The translations under genes and the position numbers were made by a program. Below the pieces are notes generated by a model, which saw only the letters and a list, made by a program, of their open reading frames with translations, was not told the origin of the DNA and made no database searches. A stretch of DNA of 64,000 nt from Vicugna vicugna (lineage: Eukaryota): the NCBI GenBank assembly GCA_013265495.1, contig MU062951.1, forward strand, positions 992,001-1,056,000, in the 5' to 3' direction. Positions 22,639 through 57,620 of the stretch are shown here, one piece after another (position 1 is the first letter of the stretch; the number at the start of each line of letters is the position of its first letter).

Positions 22639-27283
<4,645 letters not shown>

Positions 27284-28289
27284 GTCTGACCGGCCTGCCC
27301 TCCGGGTGGGAGTCAGGGGTCTGAGTGGGGCGCCCCACCACTCTGTGGCCAGTCTGGGCAGGGCCAGTTCTGCGGAAGAGGTCTCCCTGGAGGGGCACCA
27401 GGGCTTGGTGCTGGACACCGATACCTGCCTTTGGAGCTGCCCGAGGCCTGCTGCACACAAAGAGCCCTCTCCAGGAGCGCCCCACCGTGACAGCCACAGG
27501 GCCCGGAGGGAGCCCATGTGCCTTCTGCCCGAGCACCAATTCACCCTCAGCTTCTCACCTCTTACACCTCTGGGTCCGCCTGTCCCCCTCAGGCCTATGG
27601 CTCACCAAGCCCCTTGGAGTGTGCCCTGCCCATGGCACCTGGCCTCCCAAGCCAGACTCTGGTGGGGGACAGTGTGAAGCTGGCACAGCCCTCTTCCTGG
27701 GCCTCTACCTGTCGGGCCCTCCTGGCCACCACAGCAGCCCAGCACCCTCCATCGTGTGCTCCACTCCCTGCTGGCCATGCCCTGGCCTGAGGTCCTCAGG
27801 TTCCTGGCCACATCCTCGCTGCTCAAGAAGCTTTGATCTGTCCACACCTGCTGCCCCACAGCCTGGCCCCACTCCATCCCCCCATCATGGTGTCAGACCG
27901 CCCCCCGGACCTTCTCCGGATCATGTCCCCTGACCTCCCCACTGGACAGCACAGGCCCGAGATGATGTCTGCAGGTCCAGCTGTGAGGCACCCACATCCA
28001 CAGCCCACCAGGCTGAGCCCTCGCCTCGGTGCCCCAGCGCCTGGCTCAGGGTTGAATGAGAATGGCAGGACTGGACGTTCGGGGAAGGGGCCCCTCTGGG
28101 AGTGTCTGAAGCTGTGACTAGGCCCCTCCAGACCCTGCCAAGTGGCTTCCTCCACCGGGAGTATCCCCCTTGAGGTGTCCTCCTGCCCTCCCAGGGCCCC
28201 CCCAGAGCTGCTTCCTCAGAGAAGGAGGCCTCGACTCACACAGCCTCTTGGAGGCTGGGGCTCTGTCCATCCCCATGGAGAGAGTTTAA

Positions 28290-28295
28290 AATAAA
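28290..28295 (+). terminator. MROH6: Likely MROH6 polyadenylation signal
   Basis: First AATAAA I found downstream of the stop, about 1 kb into the 3'UTR. Confidence 0.7.
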
Positions 28296-28724
28296 CGCAC
28301 GGGTTAGAAGGCTCAGCATCTGTCTGTGGCCTGGTTCTGGGCCGAGGCTGTGGTGCCGGTGTGCTGGGCCTGGTCCAGGACCGGGCTGCGGCCAAGGTGA
28401 CAGACGAGGCATTATGTGGCCAGGAGCAAGGGGCAGCCAGGGGTGGGCGCAGCAGTCAGGCAGCTTCACCCTGAGACGGGAGGCTGCGCAGAGGGGGCTG
28501 GGGTCTCCTCGTTGGGCAGGCATCCCCAGGCTGGGGAGGCTCAGGGCAAAGGCACTTGTCTGTGTGAAGCCAGAGGTATGGTTTGCTGTACCAGTCCGGA
28601 GCCCCCAGAGCAGCTGCCAGAGCTGGACTGAACTACAGGAAATATATTGGGGTCACGCTGGAGAGGCCAGGAGGCCAGCAGACCCCCGAGGGAAGGAGAC
28701 GGGGGGGGGAAGGGAGGGTGGTGG

Positions 28725-29296
28725 TGTGCGGGGACACGGCAAGCCGGTGTCGCGGGTGGTAGGAGAATTTACCAAAGACAAAGAAGAGTTTGAGAGACAA
28801 GGAAGAAGTGGAAACGGGCACAACAGCTGGGCGACAGCGGGCCGCGCGGACAGCGATCGGAGCCCGCATGCCCCGGCGTAGACGTGCGGGGGCTTACGTC
28901 AGGGACAGGGCTGTGCGCGCAAGGGGTGCTGCGTGCGCAGCTGGGGCACAGGCACCAACTGGCAACTAGTGAGGCTCGGCGGGGGCCGTTCTAAGTCACG
29001 GGGTTTATGACTCTGGTAAGGGCAGGGTGTGCAGTGAGGCCTCCTGCGCCCACCCCACCTCAGCAGGCACCACGCCCGCCCTGCCCGGCTCCCTCCAGTC
29101 TACGGAGAGCCCATTCCAGCACCAGGGCTGGCCCGCCCGGGTACTGTGAGACTAGTGGTTTCTAGGGGCAGGCAGTTTGGCCAGGGCACACATACGTCAG
29201 GGAAACATGCTCTTTATCTTTTTATGAAGGAATGTAGGCACATGGAGCATCCAGGAGTGGGGGTTAAGGACTTCAAGAACGCCAGCCTGCCCCACA
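28725..29296 (-). mobile_element. Solo ERV LTR, 572 bp, minus orientation
   Basis: Begins TGTGCGGGG, ends CCCCACA (TG...CA), flanked by an identical 5-bp GGTGG at 28720-28724 and 29297-29301. The minus strand has a TATA-like TCATAAACCC near 29000-29010 and a U5-like ...CTCTTCTTTGTCTTTGGTAAATTCTCCTACCACCCGCG... end. Family not assigned. Confidence 0.8.
29039..29145 (+). pseudogene. Diverged fragment of MROH6 terminal exon embedded in the LTR
   Basis: 29039-29122 aligns to 27156-27241 at 74 of 86 columns (manual alignment). Weaker similarity continues to about 29145. Flanked by GTGAG at 29034-29038 and 29146-29150. Confidence 0.88.
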
Positions 29297-46402: not shown

Positions 46403-49400
46403 GTACGACCACTGGGAGGAGGGGATCTGGGGAGTTGCCCGAGAGGGTCTGCGCTGGTCCTGCCCTCCTCTCGGAGTGCTCAGCCTGGGCAGTGGAGGGC
46501 AGGAAGGGCCGGGCTGGGCAGGGGTTGGGGTGGGGTGCTGTGCCCTGCACTCTGACTAGGGAAGATGCTCCAGGCAGGCTCCTGGAGGCCTTTTCAGCAC
46601 ATCCCTCCGTGTCCTGTCCCTGGGAAGTGGGTGAGACCTGGAGGGGGAGGGGCGTGACTGGTGCCACCTGGGCTGCAGGTCAACCATCCCCTCCCTGTCG
46701 GCTCCTGCCTCTTCCTGGGGAAGCCTGAGCTGGCCTGGGAGGGGTGGGCTTTTCCCTCTTTTCGAGTGGTTGGTGTCCAGGAGAGAGGTGGGGAGCATTG
46801 TGGGCATGGTGCCCAACAAGGGTGGCTCCCCACTGTGAGGTGATGGCAGTGCCCTGAAGGACAGCCAGGATTCCTGCAGGCGCACCTGGCCCTGGCGTGG
46901 CCCCTTTGGGCAGTGGGGGAATGAGTGGCCATGACTCCCAGGTGGCCACGTGTGGATCTCGAGGTGATAGGGGTTTGGGGCTGAGCAGGCCCTGAGAGCC
47001 CAGTTGAAGGCGCTGTCCTTGGCCCAGCCAGGAGGCTTTCAAGGCTTCTGGATGACCGGGTGCCTGGGCAGAGCTGAGCATCTATGCGGGGAGCCATGAG
47101 AGGGTGGTCCCAGGCAGAGGGCTGATCAGGGCACAGGGGAGACATGAGGAAGTGAGGCCGGAGGGCACCGGCTGCCACCTGCCCTCCTTTGGCCCGTGTG
47201 TCATGGCAGGTGTAGATTTCATCCCAGGTGACAGAGCGCAGGGAGCCTGACTGACGGTCCCTGCTGGCCAGCAAGGTGCCTGGATCAGGGGTTGGGCCTT
47301 GGCTGCAGGACTGACTGGGAGTGAAGAGGTCGAAGGTGACCGACCTATAGCCAGGCTGCCTCGATTGAATGGATTGGATGGGTTGAGAGACTGGTGGCGG
47401 TGGCTGAGCCCCCGGGGAGTTTGGGGACAGGTGGAGGGTTCAGGTGGCCTCTTGAGGCATCTGGGAGAGAGGCCAGAAGATGGTGTCTATGGACATTGGG
47501 TCTCTGTGGGGACTCAGAGCCCCTGTTCAGATCCTCTCCATCACAATGTTGTCTCAGCCGCCAGAGGCTGGATGTGCAGAGAAGCTGCAGATGGAGATCT
47601 GTCCCCACAGATGAGGTGCCACATGGGGCTGGCAGCGTGCAGGCAGTGGCGGTGCTCAGGGCCGGCTGTGGGAGGTGGAAGTGGCCGTAGGCCTCTTCAC
47701 ATCCTGTCCAGGTGCTGGAGGTCCAGGAGGCCCGGGGCAGGGGTTTGGGGTCCCCTCCTGAACTCCTGTGGCCGGCGTTCCAGCTGGTCAGTGAAAAACA
47801 GACGTTTAGGGTGGCCGGCCGTGAGGAGGGTGTGTTGGGGTGAAGGGAGTCGGGGCAGCCAGGCAGGGCGCCTCGTGGAGGCGGTATTTCAGCAAGACGA
47901 CAGGGGTGTGGTAAGAGGTGGCTCGTGGGAGGAGCATCCCAGTCAGGGCAGCGTGCTGGGGAGGCCCTAAGGCCCTGTCCCTCCTCCTCGGGCCCTGCCT
48001 GGCCCCAGTGCTCTCTGGGGGGCGGAGTTCCTCGAGTGCTGTTGGCGTCTGCCGGGCATCAGGCCTCCATGCTGGGCCTGGAAGCGTGTGTTTGCAGAGC
48101 ACCTGCTGGGTCGGGTGTTGAGTGTGGCAGGGTTGTAGCAGACAGGGCTGGGCCCTTTTTTCTCCCTTCCTGCCTCCCGGGGTGCTGTGTCCTGAGACAG
48201 GGCTGGGCGCTGAGGGGTTTGTGGGGTGACCCAGGCAGGCACACCCTGACCTCTTGCCGCATGTGAGCTGCTCTCCCAGCTTGGCGGAGCCTCGACCGTC
48301 CCTGCCGGGCCTGCGCAGCGTCTGCCCCCACGGAGCCTGGTCTGGGGGCCGACAGCCTGAGACGGACTGTTGCCGTCCCGTGTGGCGGACGCCCCCAAGG
48401 AAGGAGCACCACGTGGTAGAGGAGGTCGTTCTGTCTCACAGGCTGAGGGCTGGCTCGAGGAGCCCTCTCCAGATGGGGTGGGAGGCGGGTGACACCAGAA
48501 AGTCTCCAGGCAGAGCCAGACTTTCCTGTGGGGCTGGAGGGTGGTCCTGATTGCGGTCCACAGTCACCGGGAGGCAGGGCAGAATCTTCCTCTGGTGCGG
48601 CTGGGGGTAGGGGTGTGAGGGCTGCCTCGGGCACAGGAACATCCTGGCAGCAGCTTTGCTGCAGGAACCGCTGGTGGAGGGACCTCAGGGGAGCTGGGGA
48701 GCTGGGTGGGGGCCGTAGGGGCAGCGTCCTGGGCTTGTGGGCTGGGTGCATTCTAGGACAATCCCCTGGTTGCCAGGTGGATGGCAGAGGGGTGAGGGGC
48801 TGACCGGGACCAGACACTGGGCCTGTGGGTGTGCTGAGCAGGCCAGGTGGAGGAGGAGGGCACTTCCTCAGGCCCTGCTGGCTTGTGAACCGCCTGGTCC
48901 TTCTTCAGGCCCGGAGCGGAGTAGGGTGTAGGCTGGGGATGGTGGAGGCCGCCACTGCTGACAGGGCGGGTGCGCTGCTCTGTGGGCACCGTGGGATGTG
49001 GGGTGTGGGGTAGGGGCTGCAGAGTCTACCGAGGGGGCTGACACAGTCCCTGTCTTCACATTTCTCTGCACTGGGAGGCAAATGAATAAGCTCGTAGTTA
49101 TAGTTGAATGTGATAGCCACGGATAACGATGCACAGAAGCCCTGCGGGGGAAAGGTTTGGAGAAAGTTTCCACCCACCCATTCATCCTCCCCTCACGCAC
49201 CCTCCATCCTCCATCCATCCCCACCCTCCACCTGCCTGTTCTCAAGCCCACCCACCTGGCCTCCGTCCGTCCATCCCCTCCCCTCCCCCCACCTAGCCAA
49301 GGACAGTGTGTGGTGCACCTCTGTGTGCAGGCAGTGTGCTGGCTCCTGGGGCACCGTGGGCGGTGGACGCAAATGCAGGTGCTTTAAAAGGTGGGAAAGT

Positions 49401-55329: not shown

Positions 55330-57620
55330 CGCCCGTTGTCCTTCAGGCTTTCCTATTTTCTAAAATATGCAGGTAAAAGGTTATAAGTTCCTACCTGAGC
55401 ATAGCTTTAGCTGTCTTCTGCAAGTTAATTGTTTATGTTTTTCTCCAAAGTTTTTCTAATTTTCATTTCGAGTTTTTCTTTGATCGAGGGTTATTCAGAA
55501 AGGGGTGCTTCATTTCCAATGCCCTGGGGATTGCGTGCCATCTGTGTGATTTCAGTCCTTTGAAGTCTGCCCAGACTTGTTTTAAGGCCCAGCTTAGGGT
55601 CAGTTTTGGTAAAGCTCTCGTGTCCACTTGGAAGGAATGATGCCGGTTGGTGAGTGTGGGGCTCTGTGAGGAAAATGGTGTTAATTGTGTTGTTCACACC
55701 TTCTGTATGTGCGCTGATTTGATGGGCCGGGAGGGAGTCTGTTTTCCCCACAGTCATGGGGAGGCAGTGCAGAATCTTCCTCTGTGCCAGTGAATGTGTT
55801 CATTTCTCCAGCTGTCGCTCTTGCATTAAATATTTTGAGGTCGCTTAACTGAGTGCAGACTGTTTAGAGTTGTTATCTCTCTCTGGTGGATTGAATCTTT
55901 TACTGTTGTGAAATGTCCTCTTTTATCTCCAGTAACACTTCTTGCCTTGAAGTCCTCTTTCTCTGACATGAGTACAGCTACACTGGGAGTGTTGCAGGAT
56001 GTGCGTGTGCACACGTGCGCTCACACGCCATGCAAATGTTACGTGGCGCGTGGGAACGCGTGTACGGTCAGCCTTCCTGTAGTACGGCTATGGTTTTGGG
56101 GTTTTTTTTTGTATCCAGCAAGTAGGTGGTTCTTAAGTACAGTTTGAGATTGTCTTTCTTTCGTTTTTTTTTTTAATAAGCAAAGGATTTTATTAGTAAA
56201 GCAAAAGTCAGTACACCTTTGAGAAGTGAAGGTGGTTCAACCCAAGAGTTAAAGATGGCCTGCGTTTGTCTGTCTAAGAGATTTTGCCTATTCACACGTG
56301 ATGCAGCTATCGATGTACTTGGGTTTAAACATGCATACTGCTGTGTGCTTTCGCTTTGTTCCACCTGTTCTGCTTTTTTCTCTTCTTTTTTTTTGTTTTT
56401 CTTGTTTTGGGTGCATTTTTATTGCATTTTCTCAGTTAGCTTGTAATGCATTTTTTTATTCCTCTCCGCAGTGGTCTCCACAGAGGTGGTAGTGTGCGTC
56501 CTCGACTCACTGTTTCTGGACTTGGTAATGATCGCCTGACCCTCCGCTGACAGTGGGAGGAGCTCGGAGTCCCCAGGCCCCACTCTCCTCTCTCCCCTCG
56601 ACACGAGCTCGGGAACTGTTGTGATGTTAACTCTGTGTGTCCTAGACCTTGCAAGCGCAGTGTGCAGTGGACTCGTCCGTGTGTTACTGCGCCACCCCTC
56701 TCCGTCCCTTCCTCTCCTGCGTTTGGGAACATGTCTTCTTGTTTCCTTGGTGTCGCAGGGGTGCTGGGGACCATTGCTTTCCATAGATGTTTCCCTGAGA
56801 CATCTGTGTCGCCGCTCTCTGCAGAGTGTCTTAGTTGGGAGCCGCTGGGGAGAGACTGTCCCGTGGTGGCCGGTGACGGGCCCCCGCCCTGGTCTGCGCG
56901 GGGCTTTGTCTGTCCGGGGTCTCCAGCAGTTGTGCTCCGGGCGCCTCCTGCAGGCTTCACTTACCCTGCCTGCAGTCGCCATACTGTATGGATTTGCGGC
57001 TTATCAATTTTCGTCAAATTTGGAAGATTCCCAGCCATTCTGTCTCCAAGCATGGCCTCTGCTCCGTCCCCACCTCTCCTCCTGCGATCTCTGCTGCGTC
57101 TGCACCGAACCTTTTCACCGTATCTTACGTGTTTTCTGTGCTCTTTCCTGTGTCTTCTGTGACTTTTCTCTCCAGGCTTAAATCTGGACAGTTTCCTCCT
57201 ACCTGTTCTCAGGATTACTTATTGTCTGTCCAGTTTTGTATAATCTGTTGTTAAATCCATCCATTGAGGTCTTAGTTTTAGTTACTTTTAAGTTCTGAGA
57301 TTTTCATTATTTGTCCTTTAAAATGGTTACTGGGTCTCTGCCGAAATCTGCAGTCTTGTCTTTGAGTTCTTGAACGCATAATCATTTTTGAAGTCCCTGT
57401 CTGACCGCTCAGTTATCTGGGTCGCTGTTCATCCCATTGCCTGGCTTTTCCCTTCTTAGTTTTGGGTTAAGTGTGATTTGCTTGTGTGTCTGGTTATTTT
57501 GTATTGTGTGGCAGAAGTTGTGTATGGAATTCGGGAGATAACTTGTGGCTGGATGATGTCACCTTCCCCCAGACAGGGTGCGCAGTCCCTGGGAAGACAG
57601 ACCTGCAGAGTCAGGCAGTG
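55330..57620 (-). mobile_element. Old LINE-1 (L1M/L1MC-like) in ZC3H3 intron 3
   Basis: T-rich stretch with L1 antisense phrases (TAAATATTTTGAGGTC, TTACTGTTGTGAAATGTCCTCTTTTATCTCCAGTAA, TCGTCAAATTTGGAAG, TTAAATCCATCCATTGAG). Boundaries approximate. Confidence 0.82.
56164..56275 (-). mobile_element. Short polyadenylated retroposed fragment nested in the L1
   Basis: T11 at 56164-56174; on the minus strand AATAAA (56189-56194) lies about 15 nt before the A-tail. The old L1 resumes afterwards. No clear TSD. Confidence 0.5.

Follow-up and report, generated by a model that had tools for sequence, protein, structure and literature searches.

A copy of part of the MROH6 last exon inside a solo LTR of the vicugna genome, most likely made by local repair-mediated duplication

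Results

The window (the whole 64-kb stretch that was analysed) holds the 3' end of MROH6 on the plus strand and a tail-to-tail neighbour on the minus strand. The coding sequence of the last MROH6 exon lies at 27037-27283 (+). In a protein comparison (13 hits among 154 candidates), the peptide that it encodes was 99% identical to MROH6 of Vicugna pacos, 96 to 98% identical to the Camelus proteins, and 67 to 68% identical to those of suids. Given this identity to both camelid and suid MROH6, the window is South American camelid DNA and the exon is old host sequence. Among the related proteins is a predicted protein of Camelus ferus (P0008, 1,406 aa) that has MROH6 sequence at its end and other domains ahead of it, presumably those of EEF1D and NAPRT; it is probably a merged gene model. 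A sequence scan places the MROH6 poly(A) hexamer, AATAAA, at 28290-28295 (+). The minus-strand neighbour, which we take to be GSDMD from its protein and from the first-pass annotation, has its stop near 31337, about 1.9 kb from the LTR element described below, and AGTAAA occurs on its 3' side at 31203-31208.

Four of the 24 sequencing runs listed for comparison were used in alignments: two DNA runs (X7, possibly the source of this DNA itself, and X14, which carries a different species label) and two camel-like RNA runs (X15 and X20, the latter leaving most of the element uncovered, a gap that carries no information). One X15 contig of 1,876 bases starts in the last MROH6 exon, crosses the AATAAA at 28290, and reaches 28699 (approximately 27155-28699 of the window), with 44 letters in place of 28484-28487. 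It may represent a longer MROH6 3' end, read-through, or DNA. There was no Rfam match within 26500-31500, a tRNA search of the window returned no tRNA genes, and no tandem array was found at the LTR element. Nine ATG-initiated reading frames of at least 50 aa overlap 28300-30000.

Downstream of MROH6, the first-pass annotation had described a TG...CA element with perfect GGTGG duplications, about 430 bp past the poly(A) signal. Both ends (TG at 28725 and CA at 29295-29296, within TGTG..CACA termini) and both copies of the duplication (28720-28724 and 29297-29301) are present, and the gap from AATAAA to the element measures 429 bp. We rejected TG..CA ends with a 5-bp duplication as proof of an LTR, as this combination is too common alone: 364 spans of 300 to 700 bp in the window have it, and 3 have TGTG..CACA. 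Other genomic contigs align inside the element at a likeness of at least 80% (45 in X7 and 48 in X14), mostly on 28730-28800, with some on 28982-29042 and others on 29236-29269; beyond the element they contribute no depth. Because these contigs align internally and stop near 28730 and 29269-29279, i.e., near the edges of the element, 28725-29296 is best read as a solo LTR of an endogenous retrovirus. The stretch at 29236-29269, on the U3 side, is a tandem repeat in a related LTR copy, with 15 letters between the units in both DNA runs.

The orientation of the LTR appears to be minus (U3 side at 29296, U5 side at 28725), judging from a putative TATA-like CATAAA at 29005-29010 (-) and from ends that resemble those of ERV1-class LTRs. 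There is no AATAAA or ATTAAA on the minus strand within 27000-32000. A scan with a degenerate LTR-end pattern returned no loci in viral contigs and three in metagenome contigs; the three were dismissed as chance matches, having no further likeness to the element (best E 0.73). The counts of camelid ERV classes in the accessible part of PMC8605555 do not allow the family of the element to be named. The U5-side half (28725-29033) is rich in CpG (26 CpG, observed/expected ratio 0.94), and the camel-like run differs from it by CpG to TpG or CpA changes in 7 of 12 cases among the differences listed. This CpG richness could stem from low methylation in the germline or from GC-biased conversion on the llama branch.

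Inside the LTR, positions 29038-29122 match 27155-27241 of the MROH6 last exon on the same strand in 75 of 87 columns (E 2e-23), in good agreement with the 74 of 86 claimed in the first-pass annotation. The alignment includes 10 substitutions and one 2-base gap (86% alike), and its longest exact run is 13 bases. By alignment, the donor lies in the coding part of the exon at 27155-27250 (+), and donor and acceptor are offset by 1,883 bp, start to start, on the same strand. The next-best match to the insert in the window has an E value of 0.009, and the insert and the exon form one of only two self-matches at E<1e-6 in the 64 kb. The other self-match pairs 48558-48594 with 55748-55784, two 37-bp segments on the same strand that are 92% alike and lie 7.2 kb from each other. 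As had also been noted, the insert has a GC box, CCCGCCC, at 29075, where the exon has CCCACCC at 27192.

The arrangement is present in the DNA runs as well. A single contig spans 28400-29700 in X7, with no differences, and in X14, with two differences and one gap, and these spanning contigs in two DNA runs rule out the local misassembly that the first-pass annotation had raised. Across the larger set, 14 of the 24 listed runs, under three organism labels, contain 0.95 to 1.00 of the sequence words of 28400-29700; nine are flagged as possible sources.

The boundaries of the insert were set with a related LTR copy that lacks it. This copy aligns to 28982-29042 and stops at 29042 in four of four runs, which probably sample one orthologous locus. 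Its continuation, seen in X20 and thus in one of the four runs among the alignments listed, follows 29130-29155 by eye; a 16-base part of it agrees with 29140-29155 at 14 of 16 positions, the only match in the window, where 0.01 would be expected. Since the related copy stops at 29042 and resumes at about 29130, we place the exon-derived insert at approximately 29043-29129 (+), a length of 87 bp, with edges that the junction microhomology leaves uncertain by a few bases. The TATA-like box thus lies 32 bp from the insert edge. The length of 107 bp given in the first-pass annotation gives way to this estimate. That length had been drawn from two GTGAG words (29034-29038 and 29146-29150, both +), described as bracketing the insert as its own direct repeat. 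The words are indeed present, but not in that role: the first lies where the insert-free copy aligns and the second in the continuation of that copy, about 20 bases apart there and 107 here. GTGAG as a target duplication of the insert was therefore rejected, as both words are native to the LTR.

At the left junction, GGCCT (29038-29042, +) is common to the LTR and to the exon at 27155-27159. At the right junction (29123-29134, +), degraded exon homology passes into native LTR in a loose alignment that continues to about 27250, where the exon word resembles the LTR target, which nearly repeats the word of the left junction. The insert carries no poly(A) tail. We rejected insertion by target-primed reverse transcription or retroposition on account of the missing tail and the native origin of the GTGAG pair. 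Such junctions are characteristic of template switching at microhomology, presumably in a repair pathway.

The first-pass annotation had proposed checking whether other copies of the family carry the insert, and here the related copy is without it and no other insert-bearing contig occurs in two genomes at 80% likeness. Depth over 29060-29191 equals that of the locus contig alone in X7 and X14 (29.1 and 12.8), with nothing added by the 45 and 48 other contigs. As a positive control, the X15 exon contig was aligned to the insert, with 8 differences over 71 bases. Native LTR bins (28840-28971 and 29148-29191) are likewise without extra depth, and copies less than 80% alike are not visible by this approach; close family members thus seem scarce, and the lack of extra depth over the insert is weak evidence alone; the insert-free related copy carries more weight. 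The insert is present in every camelid-like run with cover at the site, and no insert-free ortholog or empty orthologous site was seen among them.

Run X15 diverges from the window by about 4 to 5% (4.3%), compared with a few letters at most between the two DNA runs, and is therefore taken to be from an Old World camel. Its contig contains the orthologous LTR with the insert (28736-29479, 32 differences over 744 bases, 3 gaps). As this camel-like run carries the same LTR and insert, the insertion would predate the Lamini/Camelini split, if X15 is a camel. The insert differs from the exon at 10 of 85 positions, which is 2.9 times the ortholog distance (95% interval, 1.3 to 5.8). With the split between Old and New World camelids at about 16 Mya, the date found in the accessible part of PMC5577142, the insert would be about 46 Mya old (range, 21 to 92), or roughly 20 to 50 Mya if the element is camelid specific; error-prone synthesis and CpG decay may inflate this estimate.

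Residues at two positions point the same way. Translated in the frame of the exon, the insert reads G before DSPF and R after L-x, as do three suid proteins, whereas the window's own exon and three camelid proteins have E and Q; tarsier differs from both states. The insert retains the pig-like residues, so the copying predates changes common to all camelids. The insert also has changes of its own in this frame (L to P and H to R) together with a frameshift, and it is therefore not a coding copy.

The first-pass annotation had suggested that the insert became a promoter element. This is not borne out by conservation: compared with X15, the insert differs at 2 of 87 positions and the rest of the LTR at 21 of 474 (p 0.56, for 27 of the 32 differences, those listed), so there is no excess conservation. 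A GC box is expected by chance in 0.06 of 87-base stretches, and the CCCACCC of the exon is itself an Sp/KLF-type site. A second, native CCCGCCC at 29132 is altered in X15. We see no sign so far of a function for the insert, which is probably neutral, neutrality here being absence of evidence on 87 bases. A promoter at CATAAA, if there is one, would fire in the direction of the 3' end of MROH6.

The X15 contigs cover 28736-29479 and 29560-29700; they are strandless, and the library may contain DNA. Between these intervals, contigs of X15 and X20, which come from two studies, skip 80 bases (approximately 29480-29560) with GT..AG ends on the minus strand. The skip is flanked by 3-base microhomology, and 50 of 1,055 comparable microhomology-flanked spans have minus-strand GT..AG by chance. 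The acceptor has 7 pyrimidines in 20 positions, compared with 12 to 16 for three MROH6 acceptors (in windows offset by one base). The skip may reflect splicing of an antisense RNA or the loss of these bases from the camel genome, and a deletion fits as well. The predicted duplex between the antisense of the insert and MROH6 has an energy of -185 kcal/mol, versus -238 kcal/mol for a perfect antisense.

Discussion

We conclude that the exon-derived segment is very probably an old local duplication, made by repair at this single locus into a solo LTR, and probably neutral. The direction of transfer proposed in the first-pass annotation, from gene to LTR, is supported by the age of the exon as host sequence. 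Of the two origins offered there, local templated insertion during break repair agrees with the data, and retroviral capture of host RNA is not supported, as no other insert-bearing contig occurs in two genomes at 80% likeness and a related copy lacks the insert. A sequence of events can be proposed from the alignments. On the camelid stem, a retrovirus would have inserted itself downstream of MROH6, with the provirus later reduced to a solo LTR; the element and the duplication are observed, and solo-LTR formation is deduced. A break or stalled fork inside the U3 region would next have been repaired by template switching, in which the broken strand would have found a primer site, GGCCT, in the last exon of MROH6 at a distance of 1.9 kb, with about 87 bases copied in the same orientation. 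The copied end would have rejoined the LTR at a similar word, by a pathway that can be named only provisionally, since synthesis-dependent strand annealing (SDSA), MMBIR, and polymerase theta are indistinguishable here. All of this would have preceded the split between Old and New World camelids, with both copies drifting since.

Other explanations must be set against this one. That the match is an assembly artefact or a chance similarity is scarcely credible. The region is GC rich and the window has N gaps elsewhere, but the E value (2e-23), the 10 substitutions relative to the exon, the single spanning contigs in two DNA runs, and the ortholog in a run diverged by 4.3% all argue otherwise. 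Retroviral transduction, as in oncogene capture, puts exon sequence of the host into a retroviral element, an arrangement that is found here as well. MROH6 RNA would in that case have been taken into U3, and an insert-bearing copy would then have integrated at this site. The high divergence between insert and exon (10/85) is what viral replication could give, and the family is only patchily visible at 80%; however, the divergence is accounted for by age, no insert-bearing contig exists elsewhere in the two genomes at 80% likeness, and the related copy has no insert. Unlike in oncogene capture, no spread of a captured form is seen, and the piece, in U3 and antisense to the transcript of the LTR itself, adjoins its donor; for 1,000 copies, a chance insertion no more than 2 kb from the donor would have a probability of about 0.002. 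We thus consider capture highly unlikely. Repair in cis templated by nascent MROH6 RNA or its cDNA, with an otherwise identical origin, is better placed and still distinctly unlikely. The donor is wholly exonic and copied in the sense strand, and an X15 contig extends beyond the poly(A) hexamer, from the exon region as far as 28699. Against this, that contig may be DNA, the insert has no exon-exon junction or poly(A), nothing demands RNA, and in the part of PMC2671141 considered here the templates are as a rule DNA that lies within 5 kb.

A further question is whether the insert was put to use later, as a promoter or enhancer module or as the antisense part of a minus-strand spliced RNA that pairs with MROH6 mRNA. 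This concerns function and is compatible with the repair origin; we judge it unlikely. In its favor are the 32-bp distance to the TATA-like box, the CpG-rich U5-side half, the X15 cover of the element, the GT..AG skip in X15 and X20, and the predicted duplex of -185 kcal/mol. However, the insert is not unusually conserved (p 0.56), the skip has microhomology and a poor acceptor, and the contigs give neither strand nor level. Moreover, RNA started at the TATA of the LTR itself would leave out the insert, a transcript that ran on into MROH6 would have perfect antisense sequence even without the insert, the longest exact run is 13 bases, and X15 has a changed second CCCGCCC (29132). The most developed form of this idea, which we hold unlikely, is either a minus-strand RNA, spliced at an intron 29560-29481 and arising by read-through from GSDMD or as a non-coding RNA of its own, that crosses the LTR with its 87-base MROH6-antisense module, or a scar within a live, CpG-protected LTR promoter that fires antisense into MROH6.

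Local repair-mediated duplication, the reading that we prefer, has ample precedent. Pace, Sen, Batzer, and Feschotte (2009, PMC2671141) described transposons, LTRs included, interrupted by a copy of single-copy DNA of at least 50 bp. In the part of that survey drawn on here, 824 of 1,136 human cases have a donor within 5 kb and 202 cases occur in cow; the median length is 147 bp, the size is under 619 bp, the mean donor distance is 1.2 kb, and all 39 proximal breakpoints examined have repair hallmarks. Donors there include exons, untranslated regions (UTRs), and binding sites, with full or partial exons in 8 of 824 cases and UTRs in 16 more. The insert studied here resembles those duplications in its length (87 bp), the distance to its donor (1.9 kb), its microhomology, and its lack of poly(A). 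Its features are an interruption of a transposable element by at least 50 bp, judged against one insert-free locus; a single donor, the only match in the window and without extra depth in two whole-genome runs at 80%; a donor more than 50 bp and less than 5 kb away; and breakpoint microhomology without a tail. It departs from the surveyed cases, as far as that part of the survey goes, in coming from camelids, which were not among its genomes, in having a coding-exon donor, uncommon there, and in having its breakpoints defined by a paralogous LTR copy and not by an empty ortholog.

Two other classes are related. The doublets or short paired duplications of Thomas et al. (2004), as cited in PMC2671141, are similarly short, close, non-tandem products of imperfect break repair, but they are described there as identical or nearly so and shorter than 100 bp, whereas the insert here is old and only 86% identical to its donor. 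Insertions templated through MMBIR or polymerase theta end joining, as presented in the accessible parts of PMC8421209 and 10.1101/2019.12.20.882852, also copy nearby DNA after a microhomology template switch; in contrast to those cases, the junction here is ancient and no pathway is assignable. Judged by title or start of abstract, no paper on this MROH6-GSDMD locus or on the insert was found. The insert most likely belongs with the repair-mediated duplications, a kind already catalogued in mammals, and not with retroviral captures.

The locus therefore offers a clean and datable camelid example of repair-mediated duplication, with an uncommon coding-exon donor, that is usable as a lineage marker. 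It also illustrates that host sequence inside an LTR need not imply viral capture. If the spliced minus-strand RNA or the promoter activity should prove true, a repair scar would be feeding regulation at the junction between MROH6 and GSDMD.
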